A stretch of DNA of 27,742 nucleotides from a virus: the UHGV virus genome UHGV-0038079; one strand, given 5' to 3'. The notes beneath the pieces were generated by a model. The model was not told the DNA's origin, did not search any database, and worked only from the letters and a program-made list of their open reading frames with translations. Both the position numbers and the translations under genes were made by a program. Below are positions 2,380 to 23,945 of this stretch, in pieces (the first letter of the stretch is position 1; every line of letters begins with the position of its first letter).

Positions 2380-2732
2380 TACGCCTCCGATGTAACAGTC
2401 GTTATTCCATAGAGAGTGTCGATTTCAGCGGAAAACATGACACGTCGGGTCGTTGTATCCACCGTCGTATTGAAAGAGAGGATTGATTTAACGCCCCGCG
2501 TTTCGAGGATGCGCTTACGGATCGCCAAGTTGTAGGTTTCCGGCTTCTGCTTACCGAGTACGGACTGGATCCACGGAGTCCCCTCAGTGGTGTCGAGAAA
2601 CCATTGCCCATACCACAATTCGAATCGCGTTTTTACCGCCTGCGCCACGGCCTCCGGTGAGTTAATCAGCCAGGTGTCATCACCGCTGCCAAAAGTGTAA
2701 TCGCCATCGGCGTCTTCACGTCTGTATCGCAT
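2379..2732 (-). CDS. Small baseplate protein (gpW / Mu gp46-like position), 117 aa
   Basis: ORF track; start overlaps the stop of the spike gene; conserved position. Confidence 0.45.
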   Translation of the reverse strand: MRYRREDADGDYTFGSGDDTWLINSPEAVAQAVKTRFELWYGQWFLDTTEGTPWIQSVLGKQKPETYNLAIRKRILETRGVKSILSFNTTVDTTTRRVMFSAEIDTLYGITTVTSEA

Positions 2733-3484
2733 CAGTTTACTCCGTCGGTATTGCTTCCACCGCGCTGAACACCACCATGAGTGTGCGTATCATCGATTGG
2801 CTTGCCGTTAGCCTTAACGCTCCCCAAGAACTCAACAGCACCAGTGATTTTTGAAGCCACACCAGAAACAACAGACCCCACCATGCCCCCCATCCAGGTT
2901 AACAGGCCATGAATGGTTACTTTCTCAGAAAAATCAGCCAGAGGGGCAACCACATCAAGACCACCCGGAGCGACAATTTTAATTTTCCTGGTATCAGGAT
3001 TAAGCTCAAAATAGGTGCTGCCGTCGTCACTACGCAACTGTGTGGCACTGGTATTAATACCGCTAATCTTCCTCGCCTGCGACTGGGGACCGGCAATACA
3101 AAACGCATCCGATAAATCATGCATTCTGTCATCGACCGGCTCCTGTATCCCACCGCTCTGCCACCAGAAATCAATACAACGATCGGCAAAAACGACAAGA
3201 CACTCATCCCCGGCTTTAACCGGAAAAGTCAACGTACAGCCTCCGCCGCGCGGGAATACCACTGGTACATCCACCAGCAGGGGTAATGTCGTCGACTGGT
3301 TGATTCCATTTGAGTCCGGCTCATAGCCTTTAATCGCAGGTTGAACAACCACTGTTACCGCGTCCGGATCAAATGACTGGACGATGCCGGGCATAGAAAC
3401 ACGCAGCGCCGACATGACAGAGCCAGCAAGTCTTACATCGGCCTGTTCTTTGTTACCAAGTTGAGCGCTTAAAGAAACTGGCAT
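2732..3484 (-). CDS. Baseplate central spike protein (P2 gpV / Mu gp45-like), 250 aa
   Basis: C-terminus KANGKPIDDTHTHGG resembles the gpV C-terminal tip and contains an HxH motif; RBS GGAGA upstream of ATG 3484. Confidence 0.6.
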   Translation of the reverse strand: MPVSLSAQLGNKEQADVRLAGSVMSALRVSMPGIVQSFDPDAVTVVVQPAIKGYEPDSNGINQSTTLPLLVDVPVVFPRGGGCTLTFPVKAGDECLVVFADRCIDFWWQSGGIQEPVDDRMHDLSDAFCIAGPQSQARKISGINTSATQLRSDDGSTYFELNPDTRKIKIVAPGGLDVVAPLADFSEKVTIHGLLTWMGGMVGSVVSGVASKITGAVEFLGSVKANGKPIDDTHTHGGVQRGGSNTDGVN

Positions 3485-3501: not shown

Positions 3502-3527
3502 GTAAAAAACCCAACCGAAGCTGGGTT
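3502..3527 (-). terminator. Intrinsic terminator downstream of ant
   Basis: Minus-strand AACCCAGC-TTCG-GTTGGGTT stem (8 bp with one G-U, UUCG tetraloop) followed by TTTTTT. Confidence 0.55.
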
Positions 3528-3544: not shown

Positions 3545-4459
3545 TCAGTAGTTATGTACTGAAGGAGGTAATTCTTTATTCTTAAGTCTCATCCATGCGG
3601 AAAGATTCGTTGGTCCGTCTGGCTCATTGATATCAACATCTCGTGTGTGATTGATTAAAACGTCTCTCGCCATTCCGATAACATACGAGAATTCATGACC
3701 GTAGTCGTAGCATCTGCCGGAATAGTTCGATTGAATTTGTTTTAATGCCGGATACAGTTCGCGGAATAATGCCTGTGAGCGGTTGGCATAATCCCATAAC
3801 CATACAAGGCTGTTTGCTTCTTTTGCAGAAAACTCGTTTACTTTCTTCTCTTGTTTGCCAATGAACTCACCTTCAAGTGGAACTCGAGCTGCAAGTGACA
3901 GTGCTTCTGTAAACTGCTCCTCACTGATTTCTTTGTACGAACAGCCAAAATGAGATTTCAGTGACGACCACATGGTGATCATCGCCTTCGCCTGTTTTTC
4001 TTTTGGCAGAGACTGACCGCGACTCATGACGAGTTGTTTAATAGCTTCCTGCTGTTCAGTGGTGATTTTACCAGGCAACGCCTTTTTAGCTTTCGGTGTA
4101 TTTCCGTAAGACCCCGTTTTACGAATGGATGGCAAAACTTCAGCTGTTACCCATTTGCGGAATTTGTGCGGGACTGAACCTTTATTGACGGCATCACGGC
4201 AGCGCAGAACCAATGTATACATACCTGATTCGCTCACAATGCTTAAATTCTGCTCACCACCAAGGGTGTAACTTAAAGTTACTCCCTTCTCATCGTCATC
4301 AAGTGCAGTAAGCGCCTTGCGTGAGTTAGTCAGGGCTAAAGCATCACAAACATCTTTTGCTACAAACCACGGCTCGCCGCACTTGTTGATGACGCGGATT
4401 TCACTGTCGCCGAATTTGAAGATGGTGAAATCGTTTTGTGCCTTTGCTATACTTTTCAT
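3545..4459 (-). CDS. ant: Antirepressor Ant (P22 immI Ant-like), 304 aa
   Basis: Antirepressor-like N-terminal domain ([33 protein letters not shown]); lies directly downstream of an Arc-like gene, as in P22 immI. Confidence 0.75.
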
Positions 4460-4532
4460 GTCAATATTTCCCGATCAGATTTGTTGATGTAGAAGCCTCG
4501 CCAGTTCCCGCTGTCGGGGCTTCGTTATTTTT
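4460..4532 (+). ncRNA. Predicted sar-like antisense RNA covering the ant start region and arc-ant spacer
   Basis: Plus-strand extended -10 TGcTATACT (4445..4453) just inside the ant 5' end; plus-strand hairpin GAAGCC...GGCTTC (4493..4523) followed by GTTATTTTT; same topology as P22 sar. Confidence 0.4.
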
Positions 4533-4692
4533 AGAGAGCATTCCGCATTTTCTCCCGGTACTTCAACCACCAAGCTAATCCTTGAACCAACACTGAGTTT
4601 TCTGACATTCCCTCTTCCTCTGCAATGCGCTTAACTTCTTCCTTAAAGCGGTACGGGTAGCGAAGAGTTGTCTTTACTTCATTCTTTTCCAT
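4531..4692 (-). CDS. arc: Arc-like ribbon-helix-helix repressor, 53 aa (below the ORF-track size cutoff)
   Basis: Hand translation MEKNEVKTTLRYPYRFKEEVKRIAEEEGMSENSVLVQGLAWWLKYREKMRNAL; same length and RHH pattern as P22 Arc (LRWPREV...ENGRSVNSEIYQRV). Confidence 0.7.
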   Translation of the reverse strand: MEKNEVKTTLRYPYRFKEEVKRIAEEEGMSENSVLVQGLAWWLKYREKMRNAL

Positions 4693-4799
4693 GCTGTCTC
4701 CTTATTTCACAATGAAGGCAAATTGCCTTTAGAGTCAATTTACCATGATTGCACATGAAGTCAAGTTGCCTCTACAATGATTTTTATTTGAGGTGAGTT
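4693..4799. promoter_or_regulatory. Divergent promoter/operator region (Pant-like leftward, Pmnt-like rightward)
   Basis: Plus-strand -35 TTGCAC (4749..4754), 18-bp spacer, -10 TACAAT (4773..4778), SD GAGGTGAG before mnt ATG 4800; minus-strand -35 TTGACT; perfect 15-bp palindrome AAGGCAAATTGCCTT at 4715..4729. Confidence 0.5.
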
Positions 4800-5123
4800 A
4801 TGTCAGAAAAATTTCCCAGCCAAATGCAAGACAAGTTCACCGTGAGGTTTCCTGACGGATTGCGCGATGCTATAGCTGAACGAGCTAAACGTAATGGCAG
4901 ATCAATGAACTCAGAGATTGTGCAGATACTGGAAGATGCCTTGAATGCAGAAAATACTCTTGGGGAAATAGCAGATAAAATTAACAGCGTCTCGGTTCCG
5001 CTAAATGTTGATGCGCTAGTTCAACTTCAAGCCCAGGTTATCGCCATGCAAAAAGAAATACAGGAAAAGTTCAGAGAGCAGAACGAAAAGTTGAGAGAAC
5101 TGCTAAACAAAAAACCCACCTGA
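4800..5123 (+). CDS. mnt: Mnt-like ribbon-helix-helix repressor, 107 aa
   Basis: N-terminus FTVRFPDGLRDAIAERAKRNGRSMNSEIVQILEDAL matches the Arc/Mnt fold motif (P22 Mnt ...ANGRSMNSELLQIVQDAL); divergent from arc. Confidence 0.75.
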   Translation: MSEKFPSQMQDKFTVRFPDGLRDAIAERAKRNGRSMNSEIVQILEDALNAENTLGEIADKINSVSVPLNVDALVQLQAQVIAMQKEIQEKFREQNEKLRELLNKKPT

Positions 5124-5132
5124 CGGTGGGTT
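5104..5132 (-). terminator. Intrinsic terminator downstream of the secreted-protein gene (overlaps the mnt stop codon)
   Basis: Minus-strand AACCCACC-GTCA-GGTGGGTT hairpin followed by TTTTTTGTTT. Confidence 0.5.
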
Positions 5133-5147
5133 ACGGAGAGGGCAAGA

Positions 5148-5483
5148 TCATTTAACCTTTCGGCAATCGTACGTCCAAAATTCCCGAGGCTCGTCCATAT
5201 TTTTGCGGATAACTTCAACGTTGAGGATCGCTTTTTTGTTTCGTTTGATGTAGTCCATACCTAACCAACGTCCAGTATTAGGATCAGGTAACATCCATTG
5301 CATCATGACGTTATCGAAATCGTCTTTTTGTTTCAAAAAGGTCATTTTTTGTGTTTCTGGCTTTTGACCATTGATGTGCATGAGGCCATCATTACCAGCA
5401 TCAAAGCGGAATGGTCCGCACTGCGTTGCCGCCGAAACGGTTAACGGCAGGGCCAAGAATAAACAAAAAAATACTTTTTTCAC
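5148..5483 (-). CDS. Small secreted protein of unknown function, 111 aa (GTG start)
   Basis: N-terminal signal peptide MKKVFFCLFLALPLTVSA-ATQ; SD GGAG 9 nt upstream of GTG; start overlaps the stop of the upstream baseplate gene; own terminator. Confidence 0.6.
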   Translation of the reverse strand: MKKVFFCLFLALPLTVSAATQCGPFRFDAGNDGLMHINGQKPETQKMTFLKQKDDFDNVMMQWMLPDPNTGRWLGMDYIKRNKKAILNVEVIRKNMDEPREFWTYDCRKVK

Positions 5484-6514
5484 TCTACATCTCCGACTTT
5501 GTCCAAAGTGCCTTTTGCCAATAGTTCTTTGCCACCTTTAGCCAGGCAAAGCAGGTCCATATACCACGCCTGCCCTCGGGTGTCGCCAGTATAATCAATG
5601 CTGCCCACAATGTAATCACCGTCAGTACTAATACTGGCAGGCTGTGACATGCCTGGCAGACCGTTAACGTAGAGATTACCGTCGCTTTCAGACTCATCCA
5701 GTCGTGCTGGCGATTTCGCTACCTGGTCATTACTCAAAGAGGCACGGTATACAGATGCCTGATCCAGACGAATAAGCCCACCGAGCTTAATATTTGGATT
5801 AATCAGACATCTGACATTTACGCCAGCTCCCATCGTCTGCTGTGGCATACCGATAAGCCCGGTGTTAGCATTCAACACCGTAGCAACACCAATATATTTA
5901 TCTTCAGGAACAATATTTACCAGATTATTTTCATACCACCAGTTAGCCTTACACTGCCCTGCGATATGATTCATCAACCTTGATGTGTTTTGATAAACAA
6001 CGCGCCCCCGGGGAAATACCGTTTCAGGCATGTCAGGAACTGCGCCGGATTCGATGCCATATGGTTCGAATGATTTCATACCCAGACTGAAAAGATCTCT
6101 GTACTTCCAGCCAGCTGCCACTGTGGTTTTCACACTTGCGTTCAGGTGGCCTTCCCAGCTGTCAATACACTGCAACATGATCCAACTGTCTGTGGCATTA
6201 TCTTTACCAGTGACAGTAAAACGGATATCTCCATTGAATATCATGCCAACGTTTTCATCAGGATAATTACCTGCTACATCCGGTTGCCCCTTGTATCCGG
6301 CAATAACCTGTATACGCGAAAACTCCTTCTGCATAATCCGGTTCTGAGTGGTAGGAGACAGGTTATAAACCTTAAAATTTCCAACGAATCCATTAAATAT
6401 GGTCGCAGGCATTTTCTGAATATTGAAAGTGACTTTAAGCTCAGAAATTTTTATCCCGTCGCCCTTATCATCAACAAGCAATAATTCAAAGTGACGCATC
6501 CAGTTTTTCGACAT
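5480..6514 (-). CDS. Baseplate hub-like tail protein, 344 aa
   Basis: ORF track; position between tape-measure-proximal genes and the spike; assignment by synteny only. Confidence 0.45.
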   Translation of the reverse strand: MSKNWMRHFELLLVDDKGDGIKISELKVTFNIQKMPATIFNGFVGNFKVYNLSPTTQNRIMQKEFSRIQVIAGYKGQPDVAGNYPDENVGMIFNGDIRFTVTGKDNATDSWIMLQCIDSWEGHLNASVKTTVAAGWKYRDLFSLGMKSFEPYGIESGAVPDMPETVFPRGRVVYQNTSRLMNHIAGQCKANWWYENNLVNIVPEDKYIGVATVLNANTGLIGMPQQTMGAGVNVRCLINPNIKLGGLIRLDQASVYRASLSNDQVAKSPARLDESESDGNLYVNGLPGMSQPASISTDGDYIVGSIDYTGDTRGQAWYMDLLCLAKGGKELLAKGTLDKVGDVE

Positions 6515-6822: not shown

Positions 6823-7473
6823 TCACCTTCCCAGAAATAAATTGCTCAGATACCCATCAACAGTGGAGATACCTTCTTGCGCCATCTGTGGCAGCGATTT
6901 CAGAATGGAATTATTCGGCGGCACCGTTGTTTTGGTGCCTGTATTCTGCACAGCAGACGTTCCGACCCCCTCGGTCATATTGTTTTTCGAGGCAACCCTG
7001 ATTGACTGCGTGGAGGTAATAATCACCTCCCTGAGGGTAAGGGTCGCCAGAAGCACATTCTCACTACTCTTGTCAGTCGTCACCTCCAGCGTTTTTATCA
7101 ACATATTGTTGTAAATACGCTTGCCGGTTGTCACATCGAAAGGAATACGATCCCGCTGCAGATTAAGCAACTCCTGATACAGTTCTTTCGGGCTCAGACC
7201 CAGTAAACTGGTAGCCGTCAGGTTACTGGCAAAATCAAGCAGCGATCCGCCTCCGGAAAAACCGGTTTCCATCACAACCTCAGAAGGCCGCCTGAATGCG
7301 TGTTCTGATATATAACCAGCGCCCTCACCACTGGCACCAGCATTCGTGGGCTGTTCAACCGGATGTTCCGTAATTTCCAGGGCGTCAGTGTGCTTTTCGG
7401 TAATAACCACATCAGGAATAATGATTCCTATTGAGCGGGTTCGCTGCTGCAGTAAAACAGATAAAAAGTCCAT
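6823..7473 (-). CDS. Tail/baseplate protein, 216 aa
   Basis: ORF track; start overlaps the stop of the upstream gene. Confidence 0.4.
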   Translation of the reverse strand: MDFLSVLLQQRTRSIGIIIPDVVITEKHTDALEITEHPVEQPTNAGASGEGAGYISEHAFRRPSEVVMETGFSGGGSLLDFASNLTATSLLGLSPKELYQELLNLQRDRIPFDVTTGKRIYNNMLIKTLEVTTDKSSENVLLATLTLREVIITSTQSIRVASKNNMTEGVGTSAVQNTGTKTTVPPNNSILKSLPQMAQEGISTVDGYLSNLFLGR

Positions 7474-8084
7474 TACGCAGGTCCTTTCAATTGCTGTACC
7501 GCCCTGGCATTTACAGCCCCCTGCTTGTCAGCGATCAGATTAGCCGCCTCCTGAGGGTTGTTAACTCCATGAACATTTATAACAGTCTGCTGGTTAAGGC
7601 TGCCAGCGGCGGCCTGATACGCCAGCGGGCTGTTCCAGTTTGAATAACCTTCTTTGCGCGCCATCGACTGCATCAATGCTCCCATAGTCTGGGGATCTGT
7701 AAGATTCAATATTGCATTCGGTGATACTCCCATCCATTTCGCAACATCCTGTGCATACTTTTTCGGATCGTTGTTATCACCTGCCGGGGCCCAGGTACTG
7801 ACAATATCCTGAATAGTCTGTAATGCCCGTCCGGTTGTTTTCCCGGTAAAGTAACGCATGAGTTGGTTTTTCATCGCCTCCCAGCCCTCAAGAGCTGATT
7901 CGAAAAACCGGAACCCTTTACCGCTCACCGGGCGAATGTTCCCGGGGTTATTGTTGCGATCAGCAAGAGTACCGCCGCCGGGGATGTCTGCCTGGACGTT
8001 GGAGCCATGCACTACACCGTTACTCTGTCCCTGCCGGATAACTTTACCGGGTCCCCGTGCAACCAGTCCATCCACGCAGGCCAT
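7473..8084 (-). CDS. Tail protein downstream of tape measure, 203 aa
   Basis: ORF track; GAGG SD 9 nt upstream of ATG 8084; 5' end overlaps the tape-measure 3' end by 73 nt. Confidence 0.4.
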   Translation of the reverse strand: MACVDGLVARGPGKVIRQGQSNGVVHGSNVQADIPGGGTLADRNNNPGNIRPVSGKGFRFFESALEGWEAMKNQLMRYFTGKTTGRALQTIQDIVSTWAPAGDNNDPKKYAQDVAKWMGVSPNAILNLTDPQTMGALMQSMARKEGYSNWNSPLAYQAAAGSLNQQTVINVHGVNNPQEAANLIADKQGAVNARAVQQLKGPA

Positions 8085-9478
8085 TCACGGACCTCACTGA
8101 CATCCCTGCGTCCGATATCTGTTTTTATACCAATAGCAGCCAGCGTGTCGCCGATAATTCGCTTCGTATACCTCAGTGAAGATTTTGCGCTATCGGCAAT
8201 ATTTTCTCTGTCACTAACAATATAACCCGCGTAAAGCGCCCACAATTTAAGCCAGGGTGGGACCGGCAAACCAGATATTTTCCCGAAAGCCCCCAGAACC
8301 TTGGATACCCAGACACCCGCGATGAATGTACCGAGGATTTCCAATGATTTTTGCCAGCCGCCAACACCATCTTTTAGTTCCAGAAGGTGATCACGAAGCC
8401 AGGTGATCGCATCCTTCGCTTTATCTATTGCCGGTTGCCATTTTTCCCAGTCGATAAGGCTGTTACCGCCTTCTTTCCATGTTTTGTAGTCTTCCCACAA
8501 GAGACCGAGAGCCACGATCAGACCAGTAATCAGCCCTATAGGTGACATCCAGAAAGTAGAGTTAAGTATCCGCATGGCGACAACCAGACCGCCGATAACC
8601 TCTATCAGGGTTTTCGTTTCGGCATCCAGTTTCCCCCACCACTCGATGATATCTCCGACACCATCGACTATCCGAAATGCAACCCGCCCGACTATCTCAC
8701 CCAGCCAGAGGATCCCCTTTATGACCTTTGTGATGGTGACTTCAATTTTGGGAAAATTTTCAATTATCTTTTTGCGCAGGTTATCAATCTGCCCCGCCAG
8801 TCCGTCCGCAAGATTCGATCCGATTTTGTCCCGCGCCATCCCGGCCATTTCACCGAGCGATTTCAGCGAGGTCATAAACCGGTTTGACGATAAGGCAGCC
8901 TGATCGGCATTAAATCCGATCGCTTTCACCATTTCTGAATACTGAGCGCTGAACTGCCCCACTCCGCGACGCATAGCCATCAGGGTATTTTCGTCAATGC
9001 CCAGCATCTGCGCATACTGGTTAGCCCGGTAATACGGCATGCCGCTGAGTTTCTGTCCAACGCCCGTAAAGATAGCGGCCATGTCACGCATGTTACCGCT
9101 GGCATCACGGGTCTGTACGCCCAGGCGATTCAGAAAGCCTTCTGCTCCGGGATTGTTACGAATAAACCGGGAGAGGTTTTCCAGAGAAGATCGCGCAGCG
9201 TCCACGCTGCCGCCAACCTGCGAAACCGCATAGCCAATAGACTGAATTCCCTGGACTGTCGCGCCGGTGCGCTGTGACGCCCAGTAAAGATTATCCAGGC
9301 CGGAGGCGATCTTAGCCGTGAAGGCCACCACGGACAGCGCAGCTCCTTCAACAGCCAGCCCCATTTTGATGACATTTGCAGTTGTACCGGCGAGGACAGA
9401 ACCGAATTTTTTCGCTCCTGCATCATCCACACTGAAGCCAAGCGAGACGAGGAAATCTTTAATAGTCTCGGCGTTCAT
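8012..9478 (-). CDS. Tail tape measure protein, about 488 aa
   Basis: Long protein with a hydrophobic central segment downstream of the tail chaperone; start moved to ATG 9478 (MNAETIKDF, SD GAGAGAGGA) instead of the track start 9499. Confidence 0.65.
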   Translation of the reverse strand: MNAETIKDFLVSLGFSVDDAGAKKFGSVLAGTTANVIKMGLAVEGAALSVVAFTAKIASGLDNLYWASQRTGATVQGIQSIGYAVSQVGGSVDAARSSLENLSRFIRNNPGAEGFLNRLGVQTRDASGNMRDMAAIFTGVGQKLSGMPYYRANQYAQMLGIDENTLMAMRRGVGQFSAQYSEMVKAIGFNADQAALSSNRFMTSLKSLGEMAGMARDKIGSNLADGLAGQIDNLRKKIIENFPKIEVTITKVIKGILWLGEIVGRVAFRIVDGVGDIIEWWGKLDAETKTLIEVIGGLVVAMRILNSTFWMSPIGLITGLIVALGLLWEDYKTWKEGGNSLIDWEKWQPAIDKAKDAITWLRDHLLELKDGVGGWQKSLEILGTFIAGVWVSKVLGAFGKISGLPVPPWLKLWALYAGYIVSDRENIADSAKSSLRYTKRIIGDTLAAIGIKTDIGRRDVSEVREWPAWMDWLHGDPVKLSGRDRVTV

Positions 9479-9713
9479 TATCCTCTCTCCATTTCTCAAT
9501 GCGCCGCTGGTTATCCGCTTTTACCGCCAGATGGTCATTCAAGAGAGCAATATCGTACAAATCGACAGAGCCATCTTTAAGTGCTGTATAAGGAATTAAC
9601 CCGGCATCAACCGGGTCAAGGAGATAAGACAGCCCGTCAGGCAGGCTGTTGAGGGTTAGCCCTGAAGCTGGTCCGGCGTCGCGCTGGTAGGGATCACGGG
9701 CAAAAAATTTCCC
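9459..9713 (-). other. Predicted -1 programmed frameshift site and C-terminal extension of the tail assembly chaperone (G/GT-like)
   Basis: Minus-strand run G GGA AAT TTT TTG (plus 9701..9713) near the 3' end of the chaperone ORF; the -1 frame stays open for about 80 codons across the chaperone-TMP spacer and stops at 9461..9459, just inside the TMP start. Confidence 0.55.
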
Positions 9714-23419: not shown

Positions 23420-23449
23420 ATTATGGCTAAATGGATAATTGCATGTCAA
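23420..23449 (-). promoter_or_regulatory. PR'-like late promoter (presumed Q target)
   Basis: Minus-strand perfect -35 TTGACA (plus 23444..23449, inside the last Q codons), 18-bp spacer, -10 CATAAT (plus 23420..23425). Confidence 0.5.
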
Positions 23450-23945
23450 GGCTTTTAACAGCAACATGCTTAACTTTCTCAACACGTTTACGCATTTTGA
23501 AAGCATTTTGCATTGGCTGGTACAAAACAAATAACGACGCTTTCAGGATGTCGTCAATTTCGTTTCTACAGGTTGCCAGTGAAGGTTTTCTCCATCCCTC
23601 GCCACCACGTCCACACATCTTGCGTGGCTTTGCAGTCGCGTGATAGTAGGATGCAATTGCTCGCTTAGATGAACCATGAGCGTAGTAGCTGAGGAGGATG
23701 CCAAAGGCTTTCTTGTCAATGTACATGACGGAATCGACGACCTGAGAAATCAACATTCCATCATCATCATTACACATTGGCCTTGTCATAACTCTTCCCG
23801 GCTCTACGCTCTCCATGAACTTCGCTATTACGCTGCTCATGCGCTTTTCCAGACGACCTGAATAAACCCATGCGCCCCACAGTTCAAGCCAGCCATTCAG
23901 CCACTCGTGCTGCTCTTTGGTGAGGTTTAGTTCTCTTATGCTCAT
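23427..23945 (-). CDS. Q: Late-gene antiterminator Q (phage 21/82-type family), 172 aa
   Basis: Position between ninH and the late promoter/lysis genes; motif WGAW...RPMCNDDDGMLI...LSYY as recalled for non-lambda Q families. Confidence 0.7.
   Translation of the reverse strand: MSIRELNLTKEQHEWLNGWLELWGAWVYSGRLEKRMSSVIAKFMESVEPGRVMTRPMCNDDDGMLISQVVDSVMYIDKKAFGILLSYYAHGSSKRAIASYYHATAKPRKMCGRGGEGWRKPSLATCRNEIDDILKASLFVLYQPMQNAFKMRKRVEKVKHVAVKSLDMQLSI

Follow-up and report, generated by a model that had tools for sequence, protein, structure and literature searches.

An exported accessory protein encoded directly behind the baseplate hub gene of an enterobacterial temperate myovirus and its possible action at the cell envelope

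The subject of this study is a small gene on the minus strand of a 27,742-nucleotide stretch of viral DNA, UHGV virus genome UHGV-0038079, which as a whole is referred to below as the window. The gene encodes a 111-residue protein, begins on the stop codon of the gene for a baseplate hub and is followed by an intrinsic terminator. Judged by the layout of the locus and by its relatives, it is a moron-like accessory gene of a lambdoid-regulated temperate myovirus prophage, of a group to which Salmonella phage SEN34 and the S. Typhi STY1065/STY2022 prophages also belong. The features that define the gene and its expression are the following:

5148..5483 (stop codon included), minus strand: the exported-protein gene, 111 amino acids, identified by open reading frame (ORF) call, PGAP, PHROG 3443 and homologues
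5491..5494, minus strand: Shine-Dalgarno sequence GGAG, read from the sequence, 7 nt ahead of the GTG within the final hub codons
5430..5483, minus strand: Sec-type signal peptide MKKVFFCLFLALPLTVSA, codons 1-18, with cleavage predicted between VSA and ATQC
5151..5429, minus strand: mature domain, residues 19-111, a predicted eight-stranded beta-barrel with Cys22 and Cys107 at its two ends
5103..5132, minus strand: intrinsic terminator, AACCCACCGTCAGGTGGGTT followed by TTTTGTTTAG, found by terminator scan and starting 15 nt past the stop codon
5588..5616, minus strand: promoter-like site ATTACA-17 nt-TATACT within the hub gene, ~105 nt upstream of the GTG, with putative promoter function
5480..6514, minus strand: baseplate hub gene, directly upstream; E217 gp41-like, 344 amino acids, Pfam E217_GP41, phrog_196 at E=2e-79

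Read directly from the sequence, the GTG start codon (5483..5481) overlaps the hub's TGA (5482..5480) as GTGA, with the GGAG motif at 5494..5491, an arrangement that would allow translational coupling to the hub gene. An identical sequence is on record as WP_000755137.1, under the PGAP name 'STY1065/STY2022 family phage-derived protein', and the same ORF is annotated by PGAP in two nearly identical E. coli prophages. The protein matches PHROG 3443 with an E-value of 7.4e-48, residues 2-111 aligning to profile positions 2-114 of 115. When 5.8 billion proteins were searched, 134 homologues were returned, down to 47% identity, the organism-named members of which come from Enterobacterales only, and phage relatives were found in 20 genomes, down to 28% identity, including Klebsiella phage Mulock, Salmonella phage SEN34 and Yersinia phage YP3. 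The exact protein sequence is present on at least 1000 contigs, matching DNA occurs in 53 of 5426 complete E. coli genomes, and ten residues (C22, G23, F25, G33, N38, Q45, F49, G75, L87 and N88) are invariant in an alignment of 100 full-length homologues, to which all family-wide counts below refer. This conservation argues that the ORF is a real gene under selection. The family is also narrow, since only 57 clusters were matched in a profile search of 1.84 billion cluster representatives; two repeat proteins returned by that search (P0157 and P0172, 632 and 909 residues) were rejected as low-complexity repeat matches rather than relatives. No Pfam, NCBIfam or PADLOC match was found for the 111-residue protein, a Pfam scan of all 100 family members gave scattered noise only, and literature searches found no mention of this gene or family in the library covered. 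PHROG 3443 and the PGAP family name are existing catalogue labels without function, from which nothing in the window protein differs, and an exported accessory protein within a tail operon is an already known kind of thing; what is newly added here is the strict linkage to the hub, the occurrence of lipoprotein and stand-alone forms, and a candidate promoter under synonymous constraint.

Several lines of evidence support export of the product via a Sec-type signal peptide, with cleavage predicted after VSA. The N terminus, MKKVFFCLFLALPLTVSA followed by ATQC, combines two lysines, an 18-residue uncharged stretch and a V-S-A site. The signal peptide was called by heuristics (charge of the n-region, Kyte-Doolittle hydropathy and the -3/-1 site) together with conservation across the aligned family, in which a Lys or Arg lies within the first 8 residues of 98 homologues, the 10-residue Kyte-Doolittle mean reaches at least 1.6 in 99, and a small-x-small (-3/-1) site stands just ahead of the first conserved residue, a cysteine, likewise in 99. 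The first 20-30 residues vary in sequence yet retain this architecture throughout. Exactly two cysteines are found in the mature part of 97 homologues, Cys22 being invariant and Cys107 conserved in at least 90%, and both are retained along with the signal peptide in distant Mulock-type relatives; in the periplasm the pair would form a disulfide. A lipobox (L-x-x-C) was found neither in the window protein nor in the 100 aligned homologues, and lipoprotein relatives, described below, are further evidence for export. An earlier note on this DNA, made from its letters alone, had proposed a secreted 111-residue protein with a GTG start, a GGAG ribosome-binding site, a signal peptide with predicted cleavage after VSA and cysteines near both ends of the mature part, and all of these features are present in the sequence; it had also named lack of conservation in related prophages as a ground for refutation, whereas the homologues, the PHROG family and the PGAP call described above place the ORF in many of them.

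The same note had recommended structure prediction with a fold search. AlphaFold2, given the 100-sequence alignment, returned a model with a mean predicted local distance difference test (pLDDT) score of 88.4 and values above 90 across a barrel of eight strands, with an N-terminal helix of low pLDDT set apart from it. The mature part, ~93 residues, is predicted to be a streptavidin-like eight-stranded beta-barrel, a fold class that is clear in the model yet assigns no function. Foldseek with the predicted structure gave no match in PDB or BFVD at E<=0.001, and a profile search of PDB sequences returned nanobody noise alone (E>0.03).

The barrel also occurs in two other settings. Relatives of 284-303 residues carry a lipobox (L/V-S/T-G-C) with a non-Asp residue at +2, as in outer-membrane lipoproteins, followed by an extra domain of ~175 residues with its own conserved Cys pair and then by the barrel, and they occupy exactly the same locus position as the window gene. 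Among these fusions (L032-L035; P0126, P0178-P0189) the only named member is from Serratia liquefaciens, and their N-terminal domain bears an invariant YAAYH.YG motif; this domain has no match in Pfam, PADLOC or PDB, and its only PHROG match is a 17-residue stretch shared with an unannotated family. Stand-alone homologues, ~50% identical to the window protein, are found in Pantoea (L023, L036-L043) at a fixed locus by fliE, where their neighbors include a cI-like repressor, DinI and a variable complement of O-antigen modification genes (Acyl_transf_3, GtrA, GT2), and where one locus also has terminase and tailspike fragments. The Pantoea locus is a prophage remnant that retains conversion genes, and the presence of stand-alone copies in such remnants therefore means that the gene is kept where no virions can be made.

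In the tail operon the position of the gene is nearly fixed: dit-like gene, plug, hub, small gene, variable slot and spike follow one another at 25 of the 26 genome and phage loci compared, the slot measuring from 59 to ~2200 bp. In the window, the slot, its borders and the distant regulator of the late operon are made up as follows:

4800..5123, plus strand: Arc/Mnt-family repressor gene (mnt), convergent to the small gene and the first gene of an immI-like cassette in the slot
4531..4692, minus strand: Arc-like gene, part of the inserted immI-like cassette
3545..4459, minus strand: antirepressor gene (ant), the remainder of the immI-like cassette
3508..3527, minus strand: second intrinsic terminator, immediately ahead of the spike gene; it marks the right border of the slot and is conserved
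2732..3484, minus strand: central spike gene, at which the baseplate operon resumes after the slot
23427..23945, minus strand: Q-type late antiterminator gene

Across relatives, the identities of small protein and hub fall together (99/99, ~72/74, ~53/50 and ~29/47%), and spike identity does not track them; the types into which the family divides likewise go with the type of hub and not with spike identity. That the small protein follows the hub and not the spike therefore places a recombination boundary just downstream of the small gene. The description of the gene as appended to a hub-like gene in the earlier note stands as far as adjacency goes, but this is no casual appendage, the post-hub position being conserved family-wide. 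Truncated copies, reduced to C-terminal stumps, lie in otherwise intact tail modules (L026, L027), and in L002 (5905..6000, minus strand) the intact gene is directly followed by 25 codons left over from the other, Mulock/683R1-type allele, GVQLLQNSMDAPKIIGSFPCKKIVD and its stop, a sign that recombination inside the gene has exchanged one allele for another. Such turnover at one site, by gain, loss and replacement of alleles, is the pattern seen with exclusion and conversion genes.

The contents of the slot vary. In the window a P22 immI-like cassette (3545..5132) occupies the slot between hub and spike, in the tail operon of a myovirus, with mnt pointing rightward and arc and a Bro-N/P22AR antirepressor leftward, and the closest E. 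coli relative (L001) carries a different ant allele (78% amino acid identity). The slot of E. coli TUM1880 holds a gene for a DUF4282 membrane protein, further loci have unrelated ORFs, and in Hafnia phage yong1, EKP1 and Burkholderia phage Magia it is occupied by other genes again. In EKP1 (L029 3799..4122) and Magia (L031 3457..3828, minus strand) these include unrelated small ORFs with signal peptides and cysteines, which suggests that the slot is a preferred home of exported accessory proteins. The record of L029 (OM284015.1, 'Elizabethkingia phage EKP1') has a hub 74% identical to that of E. coli, near the 78% of Klebsiella prophages; such similarity is unexpected for a phage of a Bacteroidota host, and the host assignment therefore looks doubtful. 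Two other peculiarities concern the tail genes upstream. The hub frame of Escherichia phage vB_EcoM-683R1 (L005 3437..4501) has an internal stop and is annotated as two ORFs, and that of L009 is also flagged; both are possibly pseudogenes or sequencing errors. In the window, the tape-measure gene with its SLT domain (7473..9499, minus strand) is split near 8039..8054 into ORFs 8012..9499 and 7473..8084, while its 98%-identical counterpart in E. coli TUM1880 is a single intact ORF of 668 codons, so that the frameshift points to a defective prophage or a sequencing error. A comparison of SLT in the tape measure with presence of the small gene was set aside as uninformative, SLT being general in the lineage and one fusion-bearing locus having no SLT call.

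The arrangement of transcription signals around the gene suggests a moron-like unit. The terminator hairpin (5132..5113) has 8 pairs, is followed by TTTTGTTT in the canonical manner on the minus strand, and holds in its loop the stop of the convergent mnt gene (5121..5123). The earlier note had seen here the gene's own terminator overlapping the mnt stop; the overlap is real, but by homology the hairpin belongs to the mnt cassette, because a 93.7% match to Stx-converting phages (4830..5130) covers both part of mnt and the hairpin and in a relative that lacks mnt the match to the window does not begin until 5148. Relatives carry their own terminator at the same place, and a strong one lies 15-21 nt past the stop codon in the window, in Pantoea dispersa (L018), in a fusion locus (L035) and in a stand-alone copy (L023). 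A further terminator is conserved just before the spike gene (window 3527..3508; L002 5606..5585). The window also encodes, all on one strand, NinB, RusA, lysozyme, Rz and Q in a lambdoid layout, and terminators inside the late operon make sense because Q-modified polymerase would ignore them and local transcripts would stop. Given the mid-operon terminator at 3508..3527, expression of spike, wedge and fibre would depend on antitermination.

The -10 hexamer of the promoter-like site, TATACT (5588..5593), coincides with hub codons 308-309. In L018, the hub of which is 50% identical, TTTATA-17-TATACT stands at the homologous hub position and is the sole match in 800 nt scanned. Synonymous constraint was measured on a codon alignment of 26 non-redundant hub genes (32-100% identity): Thr309 is ACT in 23 of 24 and has, with an entropy of 0.25, the lowest value among 54 conserved fourfold-degenerate columns, the adjoining codon 310 is second lowest at 0.89, all remaining columns are at or above 1.18, and for Tyr308 the codon is TAT in 22 of 25. 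Because these hosts seldom use ACT for Thr, codon bias is no explanation for the frozen Thr309. The stand-alone copies, too, have CTATACT ~90 nt ahead of the start codon. An embedded sigma-70 promoter in the hub gene is thus plausible from these alignments, and the G+C content of the small gene (~43%, against 45-51% in neighboring tail genes) differs slightly from its surroundings. The earlier note had put forward lysogenic conversion, exclusion and periplasmic inhibition as candidate roles; moron-like behavior finds backing in the terminator behind the gene, the constrained promoter-like site, the Q antiterminator and the lone copies in remnants. The gene resembles lambda-type morons, for example bor, lom and HK97 gene 15, in that its two neighbors adjoin one another in relatives, a terminator comes behind it within a late operon under Q antitermination, and its product goes to the envelope; on the other side, its separate promoter is only putative, and its placement is far more stable than that of typical morons.

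Could the protein nevertheless belong to the virion? It would then be a tail or baseplate component or an assembly factor, with a hydrophobic N terminus that is not a secretion signal, and its invariant place between hub and spike with overlapping stop and start codons fits that account. We regard it as very improbable. The gene is absent from Providencia phage PSTCR3, where the hub stop overlaps the spike start. The baseplate inventory of Pam3 comprises plug, hub, spike, wedges and fibre, with hub gp19 followed by spike gp20 (PMC11633184); other window genes match it one-for-one and leave the small gene without a counterpart. E217 gp42, which occupies the same position, is an unrelated, cytoplasmic-looking protein of 177 residues that the E217 structure paper does not name among the baseplate subunits; it was considered as a positional analogue and rejected for want of a signal peptide. 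Moreover, the N terminus of the family is variable in sequence yet always signal-peptide-like and then followed by the conserved Cys pair, the same slot is taken by lipobox-bearing fusions, stand-alone copies exist, and truncated copies occur in tail modules that are otherwise intact. Absence from PSTCR3 and the Pam3 inventory agree with the earlier expectation of no structural role, and the small protein is best taken as a non-structural, accessory add-on to the tail genes.

Among known phage proteins, the T4 Spackle protein (Sp) is a helical periplasmic inhibitor of the tail lysozyme gp5, encoded by an early gene of a virulent phage. The window protein resembles it in being small, phage-encoded and exported by a signal peptide. 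Spackle's periplasmic action is directed at the apparatus with which an incoming contractile-tailed phage penetrates the cell; in the present case the SLT domain of the tape measure could be a target. The two differ in that one is helical and early whereas the other is a predicted beta-barrel in the late operon of a temperate phage; with no sequence match to solved structures and an all-beta prediction, there is no similarity to Spackle itself. Prophages also encode the exclusion proteins Ltp (Streptococcus phage TP-J34) and gp15 (HK97), which prevent DNA entry via the tape measure. They, too, are envelope-located products of prophage accessory genes, gp15 being a moron in a tail operon and Ltp a lipoprotein like the fused relatives described above, but they differ from the window protein in fold, membrane anchoring and host. 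Llp of T5, which is disulfide-bonded and tethered to the outer membrane, and Cor of phi80/N15/T1-type phages inactivate the receptor FhuA. Both are likewise small exported proteins encoded beside tail genes, but the window protein has no lipobox, L-S-G-C being confined to the 284-303-residue fusions, and its gene is linked to the hub and not to a receptor-binding protein. Indeed, two relatives encoding the identical protein lose homology to the window within the tail fibre gene, at position 326 and leftward, which is evidence against receptor masking tied to the fibre. Finally, the MliC/PliC lysozyme inhibitors are small, disulfide-bonded periplasmic barrels of the streptavidin-like fold class in SCOP, with soluble and lipoprotein forms, and the predicted eight-stranded barrel and its two forms are reminiscent of them. 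A relationship to MliC (Pfam PF09864) was rejected: hhalign against a provisional E. coli MliC sequence reached a probability of 26% over the signal peptides only, and none of the 100 members matches PF09864.

In light of these comparisons, we favor, tentatively and at somewhat less than even probability, a role in periplasmic interference with incoming phage at the envelope, that is, a superinfection exclusion function inherited with the hub module. During lytic growth the protein would be made from the Q-antiterminated late transcript in translational coupling with the hub; in the lysogen, transcription would start at the weak sigma-70 promoter in the hub (TATACT, 5593..5588) and end at the terminator. 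Once exported, the protein might attach to the tube tip (hub, tape measure) of related contractile-tailed phages, or else to some part of the envelope on which those phages depend, and the tube tip with the SLT-bearing tape measure of the matching module would be the most attractive target. Taken to its most specific form, this would define a new homotypic exclusion class in which a periplasmic barrel, tethered to the outer membrane in some lineages, recognizes the tube tip of phages with the matching hub/tape-measure module and, once the sheath has contracted, keeps their DNA from being delivered, expressed in the lysogen via a promoter hidden in the hub coding sequence; this full version we consider unlikely. 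Several observations weigh against exclusion and the proposed expression in the lysogen. No family, fold or literature match in Pfam, NCBIfam, PADLOC, PDB or BFVD points to exclusion or to another function. Because the gene is tightly coupled to the hub, it could be expressed late only, a poor fit for exclusion in a lysogen; the high number of conserved polar residues is more in keeping with a conserved target than with a phage partner that evolves fast; and co-variation with the hub may be simple linkage. The -35 element is weak (4/6), promoter-like sites were found at a rate near background (7 against 3.8 expected), the frozen TATACT could have another, nucleic-acid-level purpose, and a scan upstream of the stand-alone copies found no full promoter. 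In most relatives, moreover, a simple scan of the 220 nt beyond the gene gave no terminator, although one may follow further accessory genes there, as in L002.

Two other roles for an exported protein share some of this evidence, and we hold each to be distinctly less probable than exclusion. One is that of a helper in the lytic cycle, made late and exported into the periplasm of the dying cell, where it would mask or inactivate an adsorption or penetration structure and so spare virions from debris and infected cells in the manner of T5 Llp. The overlap of its start with the hub stop, a ribosome-binding site within the hub gene, close packing against the hub in all relatives, the lack of a strong canonical promoter and the existence of fusions of the outer-membrane lipoprotein type, as in Llp, would all suit such a helper, whereas the persistence of lone copies in Pantoea remnants without tail genes would not, nor would a terminator and a frozen TATACT that fit independent transcription, nor the occurrence of the same protein beside different fibre genes, with no co-variation between the two. 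The other, which we likewise think improbable, is a conversion factor for host fitness or virulence: a periplasmic binder or inhibitor, for instance of foreign peptidoglycan hydrolases (lysozyme, type VI amidases), of a lytic transglycosylase or of a small ligand within the barrel. MliC/PliC share its fold class and its soluble and lipoprotein forms, the conserved polar residues hint at a conserved target, copies are retained in remnants, and the tape measure carries an SLT domain; set against this are the failure of any of the 100 members to match Pfam MliC, the hhalign alignment that covers signal peptides alone, and a distribution confined to the hub module of one phage lineage in Enterobacterales, which would be odd for a general factor.

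Prophages of this type are common in E. coli, Salmonella (including S. Typhi), Klebsiella, Pantoea and their relatives. Were the protein to inhibit or bind a component of the envelope, it would offer a compact, well-folded domain of 93 residues that is easily tested. If the promoter is genuine, a structural-gene promoter kept by synonymous constraint would provide a tidy example of how a moron is expressed. Should superinfection exclusion prove to be the role of this hub-linked protein, it would add a periplasmic exclusion mechanism for temperate myoviruses, of which few are known, and would affect the host range of phages used for therapy against Klebsiella and E. coli.

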